Virus record (IMG/VR): IMGVR_UViG_3300041964_000083
Location: 89,953 to 153,952 of that record
Origin: a virus
Length of the DNA: 64,000 nt
Strand: one strand, 5' to 3'
Each line of letters starts with the position of its first letter. Within the stretch, counting starts at the first letter, position 1. The notes beneath the pieces are model-generated. The model had not been told where the DNA came from. It worked only from the letters and a program-made list of their open reading frames with translations, and did no database searches. Shown in pieces: positions 3,669-43,727 of this stretch. Both the position numbers and the translations under genes were made by a program.

Positions 3669-3800
3669 TTCTTTAATTCGGTCTATGGGTTATACTATAT
3701 ACCATAAACCAATAATTGCAAAGCAAAAGCGATCGCGCACCTCGGACTGGAAATCTGGTTACGCGATCGCCTAGCACTACCCAACTACTTAGGAGCACCA

Positions 3801-7344: not shown

Positions 7345-8310
7345 CTAAATTAATCCTGAAACAATTTCCGACATCTCTCCCTGAGCATTCTTCCGATTGT
7401 CATCATAGATCAGTAAGGTGTCAGACTTACTATGGCGAGAGAGCTTCTGCACCCGCCTCACGTCTCCATTCGTCGCATCCAGTGCCGCTGTTAAGGTCGA
7501 GTGCCGGATGCGGTGAGGTGAGAATATCTTTTTAATACCAGCTTGAGTCGCAATTTCTCGAACAATCCGATACACACCATCACCCGTGAGAGGATGCCCG
7601 TAGTGGGCATTATTGAGTGCGATAAATAACGGGTCGCCTTCCTCCACCTCGCCTCGGCAATCCAACCATTCCTGAATTGCCACTACGGTTGTAGGTGGCA
7701 ATTCAACCCGCTCCACCTGAGTCCCCCGACCTTTTCCTAAAATACTGAGCGTTCGTTTTCTCGCATCAAAATCCCCAACCTTTACCAGCGCCTCACTGCG
7801 CCGCAGAGCATTGGACCAGAATAATCGAAGCAGTGCATAATCTCGCTTCCCTTTCAACGTTGCGCGATCGCACACTTCAAGCATCGCCTTAAATTCATCA
7901 ACGCTCACCCCAGAGGTATCCCGATACGTCCGGCATCGTTCACCCTTAATTTCCTCAAGGGTAAATTTACATTTATCAAGTTTACGTGCATAAGCCGTCA
8001 ACGACTTAATCGCTGCTAGCCGTCGATTAACCGTCGCCTCTTTCAACCCCTGCGCCAACAACTGAGCTTTATACTTCAGCACCACCTTAATCGCATCTGC
8101 CCGCGCCAACCCCAAAAACTGTCCAACAGCTTCTGGGGTTGGTTTGGTTTTAGTCAAGAACTCGAAGAAGTACCCCAAGTCTTTCTCATATGCACGACGG
8201 GTGTTACGCGATCGCTTATCAGCCAGCAAGTCACGAATTAAGTCATCATCTTCAATGTGTTCAGCAAGCCAAGATGGTTGCTGAGTTGCGAGGTTACTCA
8301 CGCTCAACAC
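7345..8310 (-). CDS. Tyrosine recombinase (XerC/XerD-like, cyanobacterial plasmid/phage type)
   Basis: SAM-like N-terminus (NTRRAYEKDL, ATVNRRLAAIKSL); catalytic R (LRRSE), K (GKG), HRIRH, SRH, IYDD. Confidence 0.92.
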   Translation of the reverse strand: MLSVSNLATQQPSWLAEHIEDDDLIRDLLADKRSRNTRRAYEKDLGYFFEFLTKTKPTPEAVGQFLGLARADAIKVVLKYKAQLLAQGLKEATVNRRLAAIKSLTAYARKLDKCKFTLEEIKGERCRTYRDTSGVSVDEFKAMLEVCDRATLKGKRDYALLRLFWSNALRRSEALVKVGDFDARKRTLSILGKGRGTQVERVELPPTTVVAIQEWLDCRGEVEEGDPLFIALNNAHYGHPLTGDGVYRIVREIATQAGIKKIFSPHRIRHSTLTAALDATNGDVRRVQKLSRHSKSDTLLIYDDNRKNAQGEMSEIVSGLI

Positions 8311-20579: not shown

Positions 20580-20681
20580 TGTAGCCTTCTAGGTAAACAC
20601 TGTATGCGATCGCGTCTTGTCTGGAAAACTTACGCGATCGCACGTCCACTAACCCACAAGCTAATGGAGCAACTATCCATC

Positions 20682-21885: not shown

Positions 21886-22252
21886 GTTTATTTGCGATCG
21901 CGTACTGCTTCCCTTAAAGATTAGGAATACGCGATCGCGCAACTACATCAACAATCAAAGGAGCAAAACAATGGTAGAATACACAGTTCGATTTAGAGTT
22001 GAAATCAAATACCTCACAGAGGAAGAACAAGAAGAAGCGATTTTGTTAGAAAAAATGAATGTTTATGAAAACAAACTTGTATCTTTAACACCCGAACAGG
22101 TTTTTCAAGAGGATGCCGTGTATATTTGGGATACGTATATTTGGTTTGAGCAAAGCTTAAATTTTGTGCCTCAAATTGGAATGGAGTTCCCCGATGTTTT
22201 TGATAACTTGAAATGGTGGAAACCTGATGACATACCAATCGTGTCACATATA

Positions 22253-31636: not shown

Positions 31637-33363
31637 TTAGCAACTCCTTGTATCGCTTTGCAATCCACACCTCAGCCCAACGACTAGGGTAAACTTTGAA
31701 TTTCTTTTTGGCTTCCGCGATCGCCTGATTATGTAGCTTCGCATCAGCAAATCCTTGGGAAAGAGAATCTGTTTGTACTACCGCTTCTTCCGGTGCTGGT
31801 GTTGTCTCTTCTGGCGCAGCAACCGCTTCCTCCTCAGGTACTGCTGCCTCATCCGTTGGAGCAGCTTCTGCACCCCCACCAAAGTCACCATAGCTGCCAT
31901 ACCCCCCTAATGCTTCCTGTTCAGCTTGGGCTTTCTTCTTATCCCATTCTTTCTTATCGAGTGTGATGTCAATACTGAACTGACTGCCACCAAATAAGCT
32001 ATCTCTGACCTCTTCTTTAGTTAACACCTTCTTGTTGAACGCAGCTAAGATACGCATTAATTGCCGCTGCCCGCAGCTCTACTTTCTCTGAGGGTGATTC
32101 TAAGATTAAAGGTCTAAAGTGAAGATCCCAGCCATCCGGTTCCTTCCCTTTAGTTGGTCCATCTTTGGCAAGGAAAATTAACTGGTAAAGTCGGCGTAGT
32201 TTGGATTTAAGTGTGCTGGATTGGTACTGTCCAACTAACTTCGCCCACACTCGTTCCTCGGCATCCCCCGTCCCTTGCGCCGCCATTCCCAACGGACCAC
32301 GCCCCAGGATTACGGTAGTTGGTAATCCACTAACAGCAACGAGTAAGTAGAGGAATTTATCGGCTAAAGTGTCGAGTCCCGCAAAGGTACGGGTAACGAA
32401 CTCGATCCGCTCTTTCTTGGCGTCAAGTGCCACACCACCAAGCATATTCCCACCTTTGCGTAGGAGTCGCAGGCGGTTTTTGATCTTATCCTCTGCACCA
32501 TCGGATATCTTGTCAGAAAGTCCGTCAAGGAAATATACAAACAAGCTGTAGTCGGCAATGATTGCGCCAATCTCAGCCATGATTTCGCCAAATTGCTTAA
32601 ACTCTGTCCAAATTGCATCGAGCAAGCTTTGTCCCCAGCCAGGGCATTCGCGATTGTCCCTCATGGCATCGGAGGGTAAAGCAATGCCATCAAATCGAAT
32701 TATTCGCGATCTGTGAATCTTGTAGCTATATTTGTTTTTTCCTTTAATCGCTTTTTCGCCAAACATATTCTGTAGGCGATCGCCATGCTGCATCCCCCCT
32801 AACAATAAGTCGTAGTGCATGGGACGATTAGCACTCCAACTTGTTGTTAAGTCAGGTTGCAATTGGTACGAGTGCAGCATCTCAACCGAGCGGACGGTTT
32901 TAATAAAGTTTTTGCGAATCGGCTCATCGGGTGGTGCGCCATCATCAACATCAAGCACGAGCGCAGCACCACCATACGTATTGGCATGAATGCCCGCGCT
33001 TTGAACTAAGTCGTAGTCAGAAATACCTTCTTCGTCATCAAGCAGATTGGGATCTTTGATTGATGCGCCTACTTGCGATCGGTAGTTGTTGAGTTCTTGG
33101 AGGATGCCATTATCTTGATCGTCTCCGCCGAATGTAATGTCCCACCCTTCTCTCGTCGCTTCTAATGGGTAGGCATGACAAATCCGCCGAGGTATCTCAC
33201 GACGAATCAGTTCTTCTTTTTGAATTTTGCTGAGTTGGGGTACGTAGCCAAGTTGTGTTTGCTCGGTTTTGTCTAATTCTGTACCAATTCCAATCAGCGC
33301 GTTGGCAAACGCACCGTCGTTGCGGATCTCTGAGCTATGCCCGTTATCACTGGTTGCAACCAA
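31614..33363 (-). CDS. Phage portal protein, DUF1073 type (frameshift near 32030)
   Basis: NDGAFANALIGIGTELDK, YGGAALVL, IHRSRIIRFDG, GWGQSLL, SGLPTTVILGRGPLG, FRPL; C-terminus continues VLTKEEVRDS.FGG. Confidence 0.85.
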
Positions 33364-33493: not shown

Positions 33494-35482
33494 TTACATC
33501 TCAGTGAACTTAATTTCGCAAGAGTGACACAAGGGCATCGAGAACAAATTTAATTGACCTTGTTCCTCCAGCTGAAGCATTTTGCATTTTTTCACCCACC
33601 ACGCAGGGGGTTGCTCTTCCCACCCCCACGGAAACCCTTGAGCCTTTACGTCAGCTTCTAATGACTTGATTCTTGCGGCTATTTCTGGGTAGAAAAACTC
33701 TAGCTGCTCTAACTCATTAGGTTGAGCGTATGCTCCGCAGTTATGAACCAATCCACCATGAGTAAGATAATTGGGTTCGCCAGCAATAGTAAGATTCTAT
33801 GTTTGCTGAATTTCACTTTCGCTAACTGACTGAACAGTAGCCCACAACCATCCATCCTCAAGAAAAGCGTATCGAGTTCTTTCGTTAGAGCGACCCACTT
33901 GATACATATGGCGAAATCCAGCAGAAATTGAGCTAGTTGATTTCTCTCTGGGCTTGGTTGTGCGAATACCATAAACTTTTCCTTGCCTTAAAAGCATTTC
34001 GTGAACTTGAAGCGCCAAAACTTTTGAAGTGGTGCAGTAAACCGAGTTCTTCTCTGTTTTCCCTTCTCTGTGTCGGGTATATTCAGATCCATCTCCAGTC
34101 CACATTGCTTCTAGTATTTTTGACTGCATGGCAACAGGCGCTAGCATTATTGATTGGTTGAACGACTTCTCCCAACAGTATCGACCATCGATAAAACAAG
34201 AAACCCAGTCAGATGAACGCTTTCCGCAGTTCCTGACGGTAATAAATCTCCTACCCGTTCTGTCATCTACCCAATCTCTCCAGTGTGTTGGCAGTCCAAG
34301 CCCTTTTTCTATACAGAGCTTGATATCTAATGCCATTGTTTCGCTTTTAACAGAAACCGTAAAAATTATGCCGCCTTTACTGTTACGGTATTTATCTCTT
34401 CTCCAGTTGTAAGCCCCCTCTGCCATGAAATAGCCAAGCAATCTAAGTTGCTCATCTGTTAAGTTAATTGGTATTTCTTCTGTTCTAAATGGATAGCCCA
34501 CGTAAAACTTTTGTTGGTTCCATACTGTTTGAGTTTTTCCTTGTGCAAACTTCTGTTCGATTTCTCCAGCTTCTATGTAAATTGGTGCATCTATTTGAGC
34601 GCGACTGGTTCTTACTCCTTCTATTTTGGTTGTTTTATGTTGATATGGTCTGACATAAATAGGATGATTGCGTGTGATGTCTATTGCTGGTAAAAAATAC
34701 GCTTTTAATGAAATCATTGGTTTTGGATCGTTACAATGAACTTTATAAATGGGTTGAGGTGTAATACAACCTTCAATTGAACTGTGGATAACGTCACCGA
34801 CTTCTAGATTGGCTATTTCAATCCATCCATTCGGTATTGAGATTAATGTGTCACCAGCAATACATAAACATTCTCCACTCATGCACAAGTTGTCTTTAAC
34901 TGGGTTGCGGGGTAGGTTGTAAGACTTCATATAGCTTTGACAATCATCATCACTAAACAACAAGGTAGGCGCAATCCAAACCCGGCTACCTTCTCGACGG
35001 TGAATTTCAGCTCCTTGTTTAAAATTACGCTTACGTCGATCGCTTTCAGCAATCCTTGCTCCCGTAACCAAACCAATTCGTTTTGCGCCTAATGTTTTGC
35101 GATCGCGCATAAACCTAGCAATTTACCGTTCTTTTAACCGCGTATACATAAACTGATGCAAGTTTGCTCCTGGAAACCCCCAACGAAGAACTAAGTCTCG
35201 ATAAATCATTGGATCTGGCGTACCGTCAGCGCGGGTATTTTCAACAGCTCGATAAATCTCTAAATGCCAGTTGTAGCGATTACAGGTATCTACGACGTAT
35301 TGCTGTGTATCTGGAATACCTGTTCCGGTGTCTATATGCAAGATGCCTTTAAATTGGGGAGCTAAACTTGCAATGTGTGAAGAGACTAAAGAATCGTGAC
35401 CCCCACTAAACATTCCCCAAATCTCGTCAACTTTATGTGTAGCAACAGCATCTTGAATTATTTCTACTGGCGTTAATTTCAT
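33494..35482 (-). pseudogene. PAPS-reductase-family protein with intein; two in-frame stops (TAA 35123, TAG 33797)
   Basis: FSGGHDS, HIDTGTG, GFPG..H..MY.RLKER, TGARIAES.RR, SGECL|CGAYA; three track ORFs are all in one frame. Confidence 0.8.
33740..34864 (-). mobile_element. Intein with LAGLIDADG homing endonuclease (375 codons)
   Basis: N-terminal CIAGDT..I..LEVGD, TRNHP block B, LLGYFMAEG and AMWTGDG motifs, C-terminal VHN followed by Cys. Confidence 0.9.
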
Positions 35483-35580: not shown

Positions 35581-35814
35581 ATGCGATCGCGTATTCAAAT
35601 TGATATGGAATACCTCAAGCAAGTCTACGCCGAGGAAAACTCGATTCCAAAAACAGCTGCACGATCTGGGTTGTCGTATGGAACTGTGCGATCGCGCTTG
35701 CTTGAAGCTGGAGTAACACTCAAGTCTCGTGGTGGGCAGTGCGTTGGAGACGAGAAAATGACCAATGCAGAGCGAACTTACAAACACCGTAAGCAGAAAA
35801 AGAAGGCGATCTGA
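35581..35814 (+). CDS. Small HTH DNA-binding protein
   Basis: SIPKTAARSGLSYGTVRSRLLEAGV; MTNAERTYKHR. Confidence 0.75.
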   Translation: MRSRIQIDMEYLKQVYAEENSIPKTAARSGLSYGTVRSRLLEAGVTLKSRGGQCVGDEKMTNAERTYKHRKQKKKAI

Positions 35815-35981
35815 TCTGCAAAAAGCCGATCTGATCCTCGATCTACAATACCCTAATTTACGTCATAGCAGTATAAGATCAGATCATAATTAATGTTATT
35901 TGCTTAATTTTTGTTATGTTGATCGTTTGCTAACACACTAAGTATTTATACTCACCTAATAAAATATTTCTGACATTCATG

Positions 35982-36009
35982 TTGCATTAGTTGATATTTG
36001 CGTTACTAT
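35982..36009 (+). promoter_or_regulatory. Putative sigma70 promoter of early-gene region
   Basis: TTGCAT-16 bp-TACTAT upstream of a long + strand gene run. Confidence 0.5.
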
Positions 36010-36066
36010 AAAGAGGTGATGCAAAAGCAAGCGATTTCAATCAACAAACACACACGAGTAATTAAA

Positions 36067-36414
36067 ATGAACTTCCATAAAATCGAAGCAGGACAATATA
36101 AATCAGAAGAGGGTAGATTCCTAATCAAGAACACATACCACTCAAGATGTCCGTGGATTGTGCAAGACGAGAAAGACGCAGAACCATTTAATACTGATAG
36201 ATACGAAACGTTAACCGAAGCAAAAGCAGCAATTGTATTTCTCTGTCAGGTAGAAGTTAAACACCAACAGCTTTTAGATGCTGGGTACATCTTTGTACCT
36301 AATGAAAAGTTACCAGGCTTATGCTGGAAGTCACCATTCTCTAATCAACTGTTTACTCGCGATGTTGCATTAGATGAGTTAGCCGCGAATCAATACTTAC
36401 AAAGTTTAGCGTAA
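36067..36414 (+). CDS. Small hypothetical early protein
   Basis: ORF, MNFHKIEAG start. Confidence 0.6.
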   Translation: MNFHKIEAGQYKSEEGRFLIKNTYHSRCPWIVQDEKDAEPFNTDRYETLTEAKAAIVFLCQVEVKHQQLLDAGYIFVPNEKLPGLCWKSPFSNQLFTRDVALDELAANQYLQSLA

Positions 36415-36524
36415 TTGTCTTTTATAGTTCATAGCGATCGCGTGTAATTAAGCACCTAGCTAGTGGCAGAGACTGGCGATCGCATGGGGTAACTCCAATG
36501 CACAAACTCAACACAAACAAAGTA

Positions 36525-36842
36525 ATGAACAATTCACAGCGATTTACACTAGCTAATGTTATCTCTAAGAGAATATACGACGACAAGAAAGGCTGGATTG
36601 ATTTTGAGATTAACTTAACCGATGAACACAAAGCAGCGTTTGTAGATTTGTTTGGAAAACGCTGCCACGAGAAAACCAAAAGACGCTTACAGTCATTTAT
36701 AAATTATCCTAGCGGTGCTGAAAATCACGGTATCTATGAGCGTGTAGTGTTTAATCATTATGGACAACCATGCCATTATGTTGCAGGGCAAAGCTATCCT
36801 GATGAGTTAAGAATAGTTCGTAATCTAATTTGCAATAGATAA
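36525..36842 (+). CDS. Small hypothetical early protein
   Basis: Ends YVAGQSYPDELRIVR. Confidence 0.65.
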   Translation: MNNSQRFTLANVISKRIYDDKKGWIDFEINLTDEHKAAFVDLFGKRCHEKTKRRLQSFINYPSGAENHGIYERVVFNHYGQPCHYVAGQSYPDELRIVRNLICNR

Positions 36843-36937
36843 AACAGCAGCGATCGCGGGTACTCAAACCCCTAGCCAGATGGTAGTGACTGGCGATCGC
36901 ATGGGGCAACCCAACAAACCAACACAAAGGAATCAAG

Positions 36938-37546
36938 ATGCTTACAGACGAAATGAAAGACGCTGCATTAGTTGCTAAACTTCTTCAGGAGATGCACGAG
37001 CTATTGATACTGATTCAAGATGTATATGATCCAAAAGTTGGCTTAATGATTTATGCCAATCTTACAGGAAAGCTTATCAGCGAAGAATACGAAAAGCCTT
37101 ATACGTTGTTTGAATTCAGCTCTTATGAAGATGCTGTAGAGAAGCTAAAAGATTTTTACAATAGTTATACAACAGCAACTACAGTGACTTGGGATTGTCC
37201 TAAAACCAAAATACTTTACTATCATTGCGGATTACCAATTATAAGCATTGATGGTAATGATTACGCAGTTGCTATCAATAGGGCAAAGTCACTAGAAGCG
37301 GCTACAGAACTAATTGAAGCAGAGATTGAAGATTACGACGAAGCTTTGGAAGAAAGCTGGGATAAAGACTTGTTAGATGAGTATCAGAAAATTGGTGCTG
37401 AAGCATTTTTTAAGAAACATGGCTACAGTTTCCTTGCAACTTACGACGAAGAAGAGATCACATTTGATAAATTAACATTTGAGCAACAATCGCAAGTGTT
37501 AGAAATTCTACCTAACGCTACGCAGTCTTTGTTGTATCGATTGTAG
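36938..37546 (+). CDS. Acidic hypothetical protein
   Basis: 202 aa; FLATYDEEE. Confidence 0.65.
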   Translation: MLTDEMKDAALVAKLLQEMHELLILIQDVYDPKVGLMIYANLTGKLISEEYEKPYTLFEFSSYEDAVEKLKDFYNSYTTATTVTWDCPKTKILYYHCGLPIISIDGNDYAVAINRAKSLEAATELIEAEIEDYDEALEESWDKDLLDEYQKIGAEAFFKKHGYSFLATYDEEEITFDKLTFEQQSQVLEILPNATQSLLYRL

Positions 37547-37634
37547 AAAGTGCGATCGCGTAGTCGTGATGAATGAGATCGAATCTCTCGCGATCACATG
37601 GGATTATTCCCAACAAACAAACACTTAGAGAATC

Positions 37635-38018
37635 ATGAAATTTACTCGTACATTCATAGGTAGCGCTAAATCGGAAGCCGATCAAGAAGTTTTTAAGGTG
37701 ATGTCAAAGTCTGCTTATTTTGGCAGATCTAATCAAATCACAACATCATCGATTAATCACTTTATTAATCAGGTTTTACTTTCTGGGTATTTCAATTTTG
37801 AGGTTAAGCTTCTTGATGGAGGCTCAGAAACTTTTGAAGTTATCGGCTGGGTAGGAGACAAAGCAGACGGTATTGATTGGCAAGTGTTTGTTACATCCTC
37901 TGATAGTTTGGGCTGTATGTGTGATAACGGCTTCAAACCTTGCGGGAAGCAATGCATACCTATCGGAACATACTGTGATCCAGAATACGTAAGAGAAGAA
38001 GAAGCTTGTTTTAGTTAA
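37635..38018 (+). CDS. Hypothetical protein with Cys-rich C-terminus
   Basis: CMC..GFKPCGKQCIP...C. Confidence 0.6.
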   Translation: MKFTRTFIGSAKSEADQEVFKVMSKSAYFGRSNQITTSSINHFINQVLLSGYFNFEVKLLDGGSETFEVIGWVGDKADGIDWQVFVTSSDSLGCMCDNGFKPCGKQCIPIGTYCDPEYVREEEACFS

Positions 38019-38116
38019 TTGAATTACGCGATCGCACCTATCGGAGGTTTAGCAGTAGTCGGAGACTGGCGATCGCATGGGGCAACCCAACAAACCACAA
38101 ACACAAAGGATAAATT

Positions 38117-38308
38117 ATGTACGCAATTGCCAACCCTATAGAATTTGGGCTAGTTGTCATCTGGACATACAGAACAAAGGATAACGCTTGGTATGTTTTC
38201 GACAAAGATCGCATAGCCACTTATACAGAAGAAGAGGCAAACGCGATCGCACAAAACTATCCAAAAGCAAAAGTGATCGAAGCCACACAAGCTGGGAACC
38301 TGTACTAA
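38117..38308 (+). CDS. Small hypothetical protein
   Basis: 63 aa with AAGGA SD. Confidence 0.6.
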   Translation: MYAIANPIEFGLVVIWTYRTKDNAWYVFDKDRIATYTEEEANAIAQNYPKAKVIEATQAGNLY

Positions 38309-38524: not shown

Positions 38525-38613
38525 CTCGAAAAATTACCTGATCGCGTCCCAAGATTGCCCATCAAAGACGCGATCAGGTTGCCTGAAAAGCAACGTTACT
38601 CATCCATAATACA

Positions 38614-40380
38614 ATGATCATCAACTTAGCCAAAACCGTACAGACTGAACTAGCAAGCGAAGACGACGCATATATTCATCAGGAATACAGGATAAAGCGC
38701 ATCAGTCAGGATGAATACAGCAGCCTAGCTTGGCAACACCGCAAGGATACATCAGATCAGGGTGATATTCCTATCGTTTTTGAACGTCGAACCGTTCGCA
38801 CTGTTGCTGGAGTAGAGAAGCCGGATGAGTGGGAGTTGTTCGACTTTAGCGGTAAAGCGGCAGTGTTCCTACTAGATCGTGTACCCACCCACGCTAGCAA
38901 TGAGAGTCAGCATCCCATACACGAAAGCTTAAAGGTTTGTGTTGAAGCTATACGGGCATTAGAGAAGGAGAAAACCGATCTAACGTATTGGTTTGAATCT
39001 GAGCCTAGTACATGGAATAAAACACGGCTACAAGCTAAATATGCGGAAGAGTTCGAGACACAACTCAAGCGATCGCGTTTACATAAAGCATGGAAAGAAA
39101 ACCGAGCAAACGTTGATAAAGTCGCCAAGATTCAGGAGCGAGTTACAGCAGAGTATCGGGTAGAACGCGATCGCATAACCACACGCCTAGAGGAGATAGA
39201 GAAGGAGATTACAACGCTTCGAGGGAGCTTTGAGGATGAAGTTTTTCAGCTACTAACAGAGAAGCCGGAAGAACCCACTACCACCACACAACCGAAACAA
39301 AACACCATGATCGCAGATATCCCCAACCTTACCCAAGAACAACAACACACCGAGGAGAAAGGAGGGATCGAGATACGGTTTAAGTCAAGAGTACCAGAAG
39401 AAACTGTACAACCGTTGCGAGATATGGGTTATAAGTGGGCAAGGCGTAAACCCTCTTACCTATACGCAAAGTATACAGAGCAAAGATGGAATTGTGCGAT
39501 CGCGCTTGCTGCAACATTGAACGGTGAGCAAATGACATCGGATCGTTGTCAGTCTACCGAATCAGAAACAGAAGAAGTGGAAGACGCGATCGCACAAGAT
39601 ACCGTCGAACCAGAGCAAGCTCCGAACATTACCGTAGATAACTCCGAACATTACAGCACGACTCCGAACATTAGCCCCATAGATAGCGAATCTAGCCCGC
39701 TAGATAAGCCTGAGATTGTACATACACCATCAGATTTGCAACGCTTTGATTTTACAGGTATCACGCTGGAAGTTTGGGAAGCCCCCCAGTTCGGTGCTTA
39801 CTTTGTAACCGATGAAACAGGAAAGAATATCAAAAGTAATGAAGATCGCTTATTTCATGCGACAAGCCACTATGAAGCCGCTGTAGCCGCGCTTGACTTG
39901 TGGGAACGTAATCAAGAACTAGAACAACTCAAGGCTGAACTTGAGCGCACCAAGCAGGAAAACCAGCAACTTAAGGAAGAGATCGAACGACTCACCCCAC
40001 CACCCACACCCCCAAGCGGTAAACCACCAGAGCGATCAAACAACGTTGTTGAGCTTTCAGGTAAGCGCGAGGAGAAGGCAGCAGCAACGCCAATCAGCGA
40101 AGCCGAACAAGTGTTGATTGATATTGTCAAAGCTCAATCAGAATGCTTCGGATCAGATGTCGTGGCACTACTTGAAGAAAACCGTGCATTGATGCGGAAT
40201 GTTCTGGCAGAGCAAAAGCCAAAACAGACACGCAAGCCTAAAACAGAGAAACTCGCACCAGTAGCGGCAAAGCCACGGGGACGCCGCAAAAAGGACAAAG
40301 TTGTAGAGGGTCAAATGGCTTTATTCAGCTTCTCAGACTTCACCAAGATGCCTCCGAAGCGGGAAGCCCTGTCTCTTTAG
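38614..40380 (+). CDS. Polyvalent-protein-like multidomain protein; native C-terminus displaced by IS
   Basis: EEKGGIEIRF..P....LRDMGYKW...YAK domain; coiled coil; removing the IS gives ...FSDFTQLNLFAV* (41678-41702). Confidence 0.6.
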   Translation: MIINLAKTVQTELASEDDAYIHQEYRIKRISQDEYSSLAWQHRKDTSDQGDIPIVFERRTVRTVAGVEKPDEWELFDFSGKAAVFLLDRVPTHASNESQHPIHESLKVCVEAIRALEKEKTDLTYWFESEPSTWNKTRLQAKYAEEFETQLKRSRLHKAWKENRANVDKVAKIQERVTAEYRVERDRITTRLEEIEKEITTLRGSFEDEVFQLLTEKPEEPTTTTQPKQNTMIADIPNLTQEQQHTEEKGGIEIRFKSRVPEETVQPLRDMGYKWARRKPSYLYAKYTEQRWNCAIALAATLNGEQMTSDRCQSTESETEEVEDAIAQDTVEPEQAPNITVDNSEHYSTTPNISPIDSESSPLDKPEIVHTPSDLQRFDFTGITLEVWEAPQFGAYFVTDETGKNIKSNEDRLFHATSHYEAAVAALDLWERNQELEQLKAELERTKQENQQLKEEIERLTPPPTPPSGKPPERSNNVVELSGKREEKAAATPISEAEQVLIDIVKAQSECFGSDVVALLEENRALMRNVLAEQKPKQTRKPKTEKLAPVAAKPRGRRKKDKVVEGQMALFSFSDFTKMPPKREALSL

Positions 40381-41677
40381 AACAGGGAGGAACGCAAGTG
40401 TGCGGTTTTAACCGCCTACAGTCTATTGGTATTTTCATAGATTTTGGTGTACGATAAACATTATTCACTTGTGAGATTTTACTGACTTGAAACAAGTTCT
40501 GACTATAGCTTGTAAGCTTCAACCAAGCCTTGAGCAGGTTTTCAAAATAGAAGAACTGCTCAAGGCTTTTGCTGATGGCTGCAACTATGCGAATCAGAAC
40601 GTCAAAGTTTCGATAACCAGTAAAACAACTATTCAGAACTTGGTGTATCAATCCCTGCGAGAGCAGTTTGGATTGAGCGCCAACCAAGCCGTTAGAGTGT
40701 GCGCCAGAGTTGGAGCTAATCGAAAGACAGCAAAACTCAAAGGTAAACCTGTTAAGGAATTCAAGCCAACCAGTGCTGACTATGATGCTAGGATCTTCTC
40801 GTTTAGAGAAAAAGACTGGACAGTTAGCTTGACACTCCTCAATGGTCGAGAACACATCAAAATAGATGCGGGAAACTACCAAAGAGGAAAACTTAAAGGT
40901 AGAACACCAACATCTGCTCAGTTGTGTAAACACCGCGACGGCAAGTACTACATCCACATTCAGATTAAGGATGACGCGCCTGATCCTGTTAAGACAAAAA
41001 ACGTTATCGGTGTTGATTTTGGAAGGCGTGACATAGCCGTAACTAGCAATGGGGACAAATGGGATGGAACTGGAATAACCAAAGCCAGAGATAAGTTTTC
41101 CAAGCTCAGAGCTTCTCTCCAAGCAAAAGCCTCGAAAGGCACAAGAACGAATCGAAGACGAGTTAGAAATATCTTGAAACGGTTGTCGGGGCGTGAGAGA
41201 AGATATCAAACGTGGTTGAACCACACAATTAGTCGAGCAATCATTCAGGATGCCTTGAAGTCTAGCAGCCTTGTCGCTATTGAGGACTTGACTGGCATCC
41301 GAGATAGAACCAATCAACAACCCCGCAATAAAACAGAACGTAGGCGCTCCAACTCGTGGGCATTCTATCAACTTCGACAGTTTCTTGAATACAAAGGTAT
41401 TCGAGCGGGAATCGAAGTGATAGCTGTCTCCCCTAGGTACACAAGCCAAACGTGCCATCAATGCCTGCATATTGGATTGAGGTCTGGAAAGCGGTTTGGT
41501 TGTACCAATAAAAGCTGTGGTTGGCATGGGGATGCTGATTGCAATGGTTCTGAAATGATTCGGCTCGTGGGCTTGTCCGTAACGCAAGCTGAAGGCTCGA
41601 AGATTCTTAGCTGTGAACTCAGTTGGGACTCTTCAGGGCTATTGAAAGCCCCGTCTCTTTAGAGCGGGGAAGTTTAC
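40344..41677 (+). mobile_element. IS200/IS605-group TnpB-only (IS1341-like) element
   Basis: Subterminal hairpins aagccctgtctctttagaacaggg and aagccccgtctctttagagcgggg; ends GTTTAC; 5' TCAC target; no TSD; host frame restored on removal. Confidence 0.88.
40487..41662 (+). CDS. tnpB: RNA-guided endonuclease TnpB
   Basis: RuvC D/E/D in GVDFG, AIEDL, DADCNG; YTSQTCHQC..C..C zinc finger. Confidence 0.95.
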   Translation: MKQVLTIACKLQPSLEQVFKIEELLKAFADGCNYANQNVKVSITSKTTIQNLVYQSLREQFGLSANQAVRVCARVGANRKTAKLKGKPVKEFKPTSADYDARIFSFREKDWTVSLTLLNGREHIKIDAGNYQRGKLKGRTPTSAQLCKHRDGKYYIHIQIKDDAPDPVKTKNVIGVDFGRRDIAVTSNGDKWDGTGITKARDKFSKLRASLQAKASKGTRTNRRRVRNILKRLSGRERRYQTWLNHTISRAIIQDALKSSSLVAIEDLTGIRDRTNQQPRNKTERRRSNSWAFYQLRQFLEYKGIRAGIEVIAVSPRYTSQTCHQCLHIGLRSGKRFGCTNKSCGWHGDADCNGSEMIRLVGLSVTQAEGSKILSCELSWDSSGLLKAPSL

Positions 41678-41884: not shown

Positions 41885-41962
41885 TTTATGCGATCGCGCT
41901 TTGCCTTGAGAACTTACGCGATCGCGCATCAAATAACCAACATTAATGGAGCAAGGAGAATT

Positions 41963-42805: not shown

Positions 42806-42890
42806 TACAAGCAAAGCGATCGCGCAATTCAACCCACGCGATCGCTTTACTAAATGATCTAAGACAATACACACTTAAAGGATAACGAAA

Positions 42891-43640: not shown

Positions 43641-43727
43641 CGCTTGACCAAAAAGCGATCGCGTAATCCCGTCAAAGACCGCGATCGCCTTTTTCGTGCA
43701 GAAACACTACAACTACAATTTTAGATC

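Follow-up and report, generated by a model that had tools for sequence, protein, structure and literature searches.

Repeated two-part units between the small genes of a cyanophage: candidate RNA modules at which genes are exchanged

Why does a non-coding sequence recur between one small gene and the next in a phage genome, and what does it do for these genes? The question is raised by a window of 64,000 bases (bases 89953–153952 of the 153,952-bp IMG/VR virus record IMGVR_UViG_3300041964_000083, which is rated 98% complete), in which four non-coding units of approximately 90 bases each lie between consecutive plus-strand genes, g1 to g5 (Table 1). The virus is an uncultured 154-kb phage of cyanobacteria that are rich in the palindrome HIP1 and probably filamentous; the HIP1 octamer GCGATCGC occurs 247 times in the whole genome, which has a G+C content of 43%, and 110 times in the window against 0.6 expected. 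Comparison of the sequence with those of sister phages showed recombination at the units, where genes were gained, lost or replaced. We favour, with moderate confidence, a reading in which each unit is a two-part intercistronic RNA module whose repetition drives a shuffling of gene cassettes similar to that at the promoter-early stem-loops (PeSLs) of T4-type phages.

Anatomy, folding and distribution of the units

Each unit starts 5–19 nt past the upstream stop codon, and its parts follow one another in the same order: a HIP1 octamer, a stretch of 30–35 nt with two small hairpins, another HIP1 copy (GCGATCAC in unit 3), AU, the hairpin P4 (GGG..CCC) and a leader of 22–28 nt. The leader is CA-rich, carries the Shine–Dalgarno sequence and separates the end of P4 from the next start codon. 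Units 1, 2 and 4 (type A) have a 4-bp stem (P2) and a second stem (P3) with an invariant ACUG 3′ strand, and unit 3 (type B) has a CGUGAUG motif and a hairpin of the form N4–5-U-CGA-A-N4–5. Units 2 and 4 share 34 identical bases (36888–36921 and 38064–38097). A preliminary description of the window had located the four units, the 34-bp identity and the sequences of P2, P3 and P4, including a GUAA loop in P4 of unit 1 and UUAU in that of unit 3, and all of these were found again in the sequence; the third copy, which it had called divergent, represents a distinct subtype.

The units folded singly with energies of −23 to −28 kcal/mol and modest z-scores of −1.8 to −2.9. The antisense strand folded worse than the sense strand in four of four units, by 0.3 to 4.5 kcal/mol, and the sense strand of unit 1 contains three G–U pairs. 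The element is branched, and its longest continuous helix, of 8–10 bp, is the predicted pairing of the two HIP1 copies (P1). Compensatory changes were found in the two inner stems. In type A, P2 (GGGU/ACCC, GUGU/GCAC and ACCU/AGGU) is changed on both sides in three of four pairs with 100% of the cells paired; a shifted partner, used as a control, lowered the pairing to 25–49%. The type B hairpin (GAGAU/AUCUC, UUCCU/AGGAA and CUACAU/AUGUAG) was compared among this genome, the sister phages R and S, described in the next section, and an unrelated contig, L026, with two units; it is changed on both sides in four of six pairs, and its UCGAA loop is constant. All 10 complete units, including those of L026, have the same orientation relative to the genes.

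Four other readings of the unit sequence were rejected. An ATG in GCGATCGCATGGGG was considered as a start codon, but its frame differs from unit to unit, a stop follows immediately in unit 1, and sister phage T has CTG. A C/D box or kink-turn was considered for CGUGAUGA, where R and S read CGUGAAGC. A hammerhead core lacks GAAA after the hairpin and has no Rfam match, and a T-arm reading of the UCGAA loop is unsupported because the loop has five nucleotides instead of seven and no tRNA model matched.

The pattern GCGATCRCATGGGR occurs four times in the window, where 0.01 would be expected, and is absent from the rest of the 154-kb genome, and covariance models made from the units found only these four copies at convincing scores in the genome. 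No Rfam family matched at its gathering score in the 64-kb window or on the units at E values up to 5, and ARAGORN found no tRNA. The models R1 and R2 did not find the units in 151 Cyanobacteriales genomes, giving only weak matches to HIP1 pairs, mostly in apparently coding sequence and one of them intergenic; R1 was also run on two Coleofasciculaceae metagenome-assembled genomes (MAGs), one of which is among the 151. An intergenic look-alike (L349), met with the covariance models in Cyanobacteriales genomes, was judged to be a chance match. A strict pattern had no match in 185,579 genomes, BLAST searches of cultured phages and plasmids with the region and with single units yielded nothing or chance matches, and a pattern scan of metagenomes, which is a weak negative, gave only chance matches among the matches listed. 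The first description of the units as a repeated and structured non-coding cis element is supported; the element has no Rfam match and is not a host repeat.

Scans of IMG/VR with DNA patterns and proteins yielded one true relative, L026 (IMGVR_UViG_3300034160_000177); the other matches were HIP1 pairs in coding sequence or GC-rich DNA. This HIP1-rich contig has two type-B units, which precede consecutive small genes, and none of its open reading frames (ORFs) is homologous to one of this genome. Gene order did not vary among the L026-like contigs. The contig, of approximately 16.67 kb, was recovered from several samples (L026 and L391–L395) with near-constant length and identical gene order, and it may be a complete small element and not a fragment.

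Gene exchange at the units in sister phages

Sister contigs were recognized by their array products: the exact g3 product occurred on five other contigs, the exact g5 product on two more, and a 92%-identical g5 on another. They form three lineages from metagenomes, R (L379–L382 and L387), S (L383/L384) and T (L388), which have different orphan genes in the array and were compared with this genome (W). R matches bases 36916–37618 of the window with 99% identity, and the match then jumps to 38066–38297; g4 is absent, and a single chimeric unit between g3 and g5 replaces unit 3, g4 and unit 4. This unit combines the body and P4 of unit 3 with the leader of unit 4, which places the switch within CCCAACAAAC. 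An AT-rich region of 250 nt, which contains an inverted repeat, precedes g3 in R and takes the place of g1, unit 1, g2 and unit 2; similarity to the window begins in the leader, approximately 4 nt past P4.

In S, the 3′ flank of g1, that is, the flank of unit 1, is joined at the 5′ HIP1 to the body of unit 2. An 82-aa gene, a remnant of a unit (HIP1, GTG and leader) and a 67-aa orphan follow, and the unit before g5 joins a type-B body to a type-A P4 with the switch within CATGGG. T has an 82-aa gene, a remnant (HIP1, P2 and leader), an 84-aa orphan, a type-A unit and g5; the parts of this unit are mosaic between units 1 and 2, and it reads CCUGGGG. The body of the unit before g5 differs in each of W, R, S and T, which makes four bodies in all. 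The upstream gene tends to be accompanied by the 5′ part of a unit and the downstream gene by the 3′ part, and the switch points lie in short conserved blocks in at least four places, namely, the 5′ HIP1, CATGGG, CCCAACAAAC and the leader. The preliminary description had proposed that the units are a recombination point for gene swapping and had suggested a comparison of gene order in relatives; the gene content between the repeats does vary, and in all three lineages it differs at junctions inside units. One further change was seen in contig L387 (255–270; compare window 38105–38182), where a deletion between a copy of AAAGGATAA in the leader and another inside the gene has removed the start of g5; judged from the sequence, this loss is a microhomology deletion.

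Switches in at least four different blocks argue against a single-site recombinase. This bears on the idea that the units are sites of dedicated site-specific recombination, capturing cassettes as the attC sites of integrons do. Both systems have structured, imperfect inverted repeats that separate promoter-less small genes in one orientation, a tyrosine recombinase gene, the only one found among ten large ORFs of the window that were scanned, is present at 7345–8310, and ACCCAAC in the units fits the RYYYAAC core. However, this Xer-like recombinase gene lies at a distance of 28 kb, and its score on the integron-integrase model TIGR02249 is 36 bits against a cut-off of 265; no integron integrase is adjacent, and there is no inverted GTTRRRY partner, no R″/R′ core pair and no fixed crossover point. 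In addition, the conserved part sits with the downstream leader here, whereas in integrons it sits at the 3′ end of the cassette. We consider dedicated capture of this kind very improbable.

We give equally little credence to a selfish origin, in which the units would be miniature inverted-repeat transposable elements, possibly moved by an IS200/IS605 system, with no role for the phage. Such elements would be repeated and bounded by inverted HIP1 copies, as the units are; the type-B form also occurs in an otherwise unrelated phage contig, and a TnpB gene lies 2.4 kb away. However, there are only four copies, all in one orientation, all between a stop and a start codon and all without target duplications. 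None was found in the cyanobacterial genomes searched, including two with TnpB copies 89–91% identical to this one, compensatory change maintains the inner stems, and R has a unit although it lacks the TnpB insertion.

A proposed two-part module and its alternatives

In the reading that we favour, a rightward operon of small orphan genes would have one module between successive cistrons. In the sense transcript, the 5′ part would form a HIP1-clamped three-way junction (P1, P2 and P3) that caps and insulates the upstream cistron by blocking 3′ exonucleases, by signalling endonuclease processing or by both, and it would not be an efficient terminator. The 3′ part, P4 with its unstructured CA-rich leader and Shine–Dalgarno sequence, would be a standard 5′ untranslated region for the next cistron. 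Since identical blocks of 6 to 34 nt are common to the modules, these would lend themselves to short-homology recombination, by which single-gene cassettes are lost, added or exchanged. The position, orientation and covariation of the units, together with the lack of promoter and terminator features, suggest a role in RNA: a consensus scan called neither a promoter-like nor a terminator-like site in any of the four units, and no TAnnnT hexamer is conserved in the unit alignments. The same lack argues against a small-RNA gene, and the variation of the P4 loop (GCAA, GUAA, UUAU and 13 nt in L026) argues against a boxB-like antitermination signal; these two functions of those first proposed for the units were therefore not retained.

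The units could instead be weak, leaky terminators or attenuators, comparable to the stem-loop half of a PeSL, by which expression is graded from gene to gene in the operon; recombination would then be a by-product. A GC-rich clamp of 8–10 bp does stand just past each stop codon, HIP1 clamps followed by a T-run look like true terminators elsewhere in the genome and in L026, the fifth intercistronic element of the array (Table 1), unrelated to the units in sequence, is followed by CUUUU in R, and the stem-loops of PeSLs are effective terminators (PMC2839356). However, no unit has a U-tract, since AUGGGG comes after P1 and a U-free, CA-rich run after P4, a terminator scan calls none of the units, and the structure is branched and not a simple hairpin. 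We therefore regard termination or attenuation as unlikely.

A promoter would account for other features of the units. In this case, the 3′ block (GACUGGCGAUCGCAUGGGGCAACCCAAC...) would be a phage-specific promoter or the site of a DNA-binding regulator, and each cassette would be transcribed alone; the 34-nt identical block 25–50 nt upstream of two start codons, the AT-rich inverted-repeat region that stands in the place of unit 2 in R, as if interchangeable with it, and the promoters carried by PeSLs would all be in keeping with this. By contrast, no unit has a −10/−35 consensus, and the AT-rich region of R is not called as a promoter either. Sigma-70 region 2 (PF04542) was not found in the 98%-complete genome; T7-type RNA polymerase (PF00940) was also not found, which is a weak negative because the profile matched none of the control genomes. 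Moreover, the stems covary as the sequence changes, and the block itself is mosaic between phages. An independent promoter or regulator site for each cassette is thus quite improbable.

The closest known system is that of the PeSLs, described in the T4-type phages RB49/phi1, PST/T4 and nt-1/KVP40 (Arbiol et al. 2010, PMC2839356; Comeau et al. 2014, PMC4122927). PeSLs and the units are alike in being short, non-coding and composite and in recurring between the small orphan genes of a plastic region, and both combine a stem-loop with the Shine–Dalgarno region of the next gene. In both systems, close relatives have gained, lost or exchanged single genes, and the crossovers lie inside the motifs (PMC2839356, PMC4122927). 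The units have stable stem-loops but neither a sigma-70-type promoter nor a terminator U-tract, and each consists of a HIP1-clamped three-way junction and a second hairpin, whereas a PeSL has one hairpin. There are four copies here and dozens of PeSLs in the T4-type phages, and the portal protein of this phage belongs to Phage_portal_3.

The processing signals for RNase III between the early genes of T7 (PMC4858673) offer a functional model of the units. In both cases, structured elements lie between consecutive cistrons of a phage operon transcribed by the host, and a cut within the unit would leave a protective 3′ hairpin and a free leader. The T7 signals are irregular hairpins of approximately 20 bp (some two turns of double-stranded RNA, often with an internal loop), whereas the units are branched, with a longest helix of 8–10 bp, and thus fall outside the structural definition; no RNase III gene was found in this phage. 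The REP/BIME family (repetitive extragenic palindromes and bacterial interspersed mosaic elements) of enterobacteria belongs to host genomes, has hundreds of copies and is thought to stabilise upstream mRNA segments. It likewise provides GC-rich intercistronic hairpins from a palindrome iterated throughout a genome, but the units are phage-specific and have additional covarying inner stems and a fixed leader. Finally, P4 of units 2 and 4 resembles a lambdoid nut site, since it has a stem of 3 bp closed by a GCAA tetraloop and lies in a leader. Unlike nut sites, where an N protein binds a conserved GNRA-like loop, the units have no conserved loop (GUAA, UUAU or 13 nt in other copies) and no boxA-like block, and they occur once per gene instead of once per operon.

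More tentatively, the units might be portable RNA punctuation, at which host RNase E, RNase III or RNase P/Z (through mimicry of a tRNA-like acceptor/T-arm) cuts the early polycistronic transcript at every unit; we hold this version to be doubtful. If it were true, each orphan cassette would be a self-contained, plug-and-play expression unit, the occurrence of a 65-nt type-B module in two phage lineages without detectable protein homology would be explained, and the units would represent a class of cis-acting phage RNA, not described before, in which expression and gene exchange are coupled.

Several points weigh against the two-part module that we favour. The preliminary description had called the multi-stem element covarying; compensatory changes uphold this for P2 and the type-B inner hairpin, and not for P1, P3 and P4. 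P1 is an invariant palindrome in all units and common genome-wide (247 copies), so that its pairing is beyond the reach of covariation, and in unit 3 and in the corresponding unit of S (S_u3) it contains a C–A mismatch that would be a G–U pair on the antisense strand. Within a type, no pair of P3 or P4 is changed on both sides. P3 thus shows conservation and not covariation, because its 3′ strand (ACUG) is invariant; the fourth P4 pair changes from G–C to A–U between types. With three to five independent sequences per type, the comparison gives good support to the two inner stems and does not prove the whole fold. The insertion or deletion of g6 in R is not at a unit, and intergenic breakpoints are in any case favoured because breakpoints inside genes are selected against. 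Units are truncated in S and T, and none precedes g6 or the g3 of R, which shows that the full structure is dispensable for expression of the next gene. That the structure acts in RNA, how it acts there, the folding and processing of the transcript and the operon structure itself are what we infer.

The DNA signals behind the fast renewal of accessory genes in phages have been documented in few lineages, mainly as the PeSLs of T4-type phages. PeSL-like behaviour is now seen in natural populations of an uncultured cyanophage with a different junction element, which is distinguished from PeSLs by the lack of a promoter or terminator consensus, its base in the host HIP1 palindrome and its compensated inner stems. 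It offers a testable case of a non-coding module that organises the expression of orphan genes and also acts as an exchange point, and HIP1, whose function is unsettled, gains a possible structural use in a phage. Because the units mark cassette boundaries, they help to annotate accessory, possibly counter-defence, genes in such phages.

Surrounding genes and other HIP1 clamps

Table 1 Features of the array and its surroundings, in window coordinates (position 1 is the first base of the window)
Feature	Position	Strand	Remarks
Tyrosine recombinase, Xer-like	7345–8310	−	28 kb from the units
Portal gene (Phage_portal_3)	32017–33363	−	left of the array
PAPS-reductase-like gene broken by a LAGLIDADG-domain ORF	33797–35482	−	adjoins the portal gene
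Small regulator gene, HTH_58-type	35581–35814	+	head of the array; L383 homologue carries PF19575; weak NCBIfam HTH match
AT-rich non-coding region before g1	35815–36066	+	CGATCTGATC direct and inverted repeats
g1, 115 aa, no family	36067–36414	+	conserved left anchor; 94% identical in phage S
Unit 1, type A	36434–36524	+	core 36434–36496; P1, 5′ HIP1 36434–36441 with 36476–36483; 3′ HIP1 + ATGGG from 36476
Unit 1, hairpins		+	P2 GUGU-AAUUAA-GCAC 36442–36455; P3 CUAGU/ACUGG; P4 GGGGUAACUCC 36486–36496; leader to ATG 36525
g2, 105 aa, orphan cassette	36525–36842	+	missing from phages R and S
Unit 2, type A	36850–36937	+	core 36850–36912; 5′ HIP1 36850; P2 GGGU-ACUCAA-ACCC; P3 CCAG/CUGG; 3′ HIP1 + ATGGG from 36893
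Unit 2, 3′ part		+	P4 GGG-GCAA-CCC, end 36912; leader AACAAACCAACACAAAGGAAUCAAG; same body after g1 in phage S
g3, 202 aa, orphan	36938–37546	+	identical product on five other contigs (phage R)
Unit 3, type B	37552–37634	+	core 37552–37611; 5′ HIP1 37552; P1 GCGAUCGC with GCGAUCAC; CGUGAUG motif; hairpin GAGAU-CGA-AUCUC; 3′ copy (GCGATCAC) + ATGGG from 37590
Unit 3, 3′ part		+	P4 GGGA-UUAU-UCCC, end 37611; leader to ATG 37635; relatives R_u, S_u3, L026a and L026b
g4, 127 aa, orphan cassette	37635–38018	+	absent from R, S and T
Unit 4, type A	38028–38116	+	core 38028–38088; 5′ HIP1 38028; P2 ACCU-AUCGG-AGGU; P3 CAGU/ACUG; 3′ HIP1 + ATGGG from 38069
Unit 4, 3′ part		+	P4 GGG-GCAA-CCC, end 38088; leader to ATG 38117
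g5, 63 aa	38117–38308	+	conserved right anchor
g6, 59 aa	38345–38524	+	no unit upstream; absent from R
Fifth intercistronic element	38537–38594	+	12-bp clamp CCUGAUCGCGUC/GACGCGAUCAGG and hairpin GUUGC..GCAAC
g7, 588 aa	38614–40380	+	homologues in R (1247 aa) and S (1529 aa) carry LPD29 of polyvalent proteins
TnpB gene	40487–41662		89–91% identical to copies in two Coleofasciculaceae MAGs

None of the products of g1 to g7 scores above a Pfam family cut-off. Among 5.8 billion proteins, g4 was found in this genome only and g3 had relatives only within this phage lineage; residues 1–77 of g3 are approximately 42% identical to the 82-aa genes of S and T. Other orphans occupy the same array in S, T and R, which makes this a variable region of orphan genes flanked by the motifs, and distant homologues of g1 (33–44% identical) sit in arrays that have no such units. 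We infer from position that the array genes are early, host-takeover genes, since they adjoin the helix-turn-helix (HTH) regulator gene, follow a divergent non-coding region and precede the LPD29 polyvalent-protein gene. The region between the HTH gene and g1 has weak promoter-like hexamers at 35970 and 36041, contains repeats of family D20 and is approximately 90% identical in S. Within 35800–35890, CGATCTGATC is present twice as a direct repeat and GATCAGATC once inverted; these repeats may be operator sites for the HTH regulator. Compared with R, g7 lacks approximately 2.3 kb between 39272 and 39351.

The match of TnpB to Coleofasciculaceae is a lead to the host lineage, short of proof. The IS605-family element that carries this gene (40340–41672) is absent from R, where its flanks are contiguous. 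The tyrosine recombinase was found in a scan of ten large ORFs of the window; since this Xer-like gene is present, the phage may be temperate or may resolve dimers. RecT, ERF and RNase III genes were searched for in the phage genome and none was found. The gene similar to 3′-phosphoadenosine 5′-phosphosulfate (PAPS) reductase is intact in S (253 aa), and the LAGLIDADG ORF that breaks it here looks like a mobile intein or a homing-endonuclease insertion.

The fifth element has the same layout as the units with an unrelated sequence, and it lies just outside the range of the preliminary description. Its z-scores are −5.1 and −7.4, and in R the pairing of its clamp is kept by a double change from G–C to A–U. 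Pairs of HIP1 copies 20–50 nt apart occur 14 times in the genome, at least 10 of them in non-coding DNA, which makes up approximately 13% of the genome by a crude gene call. A T-run comes after some of these pairs, which resemble terminators, and others precede a CA-rich leader and a start codon. Therefore, strong intercistronic hairpins with open leaders are a general design in this phage, and the four units are one family among them. Intergenic clamps lie at 3729–3770, 20606–20641, 21894–21938, 41890–41925, 42816–42845 and 43655–43688 of the window and at 86823–86865 of the genome. By sequence, they include small subfamilies (3729 with genome 86823, and 20606 with 41890), and the clamps at 43655 (+) and 42816 (−) have a T-run and look like terminators.

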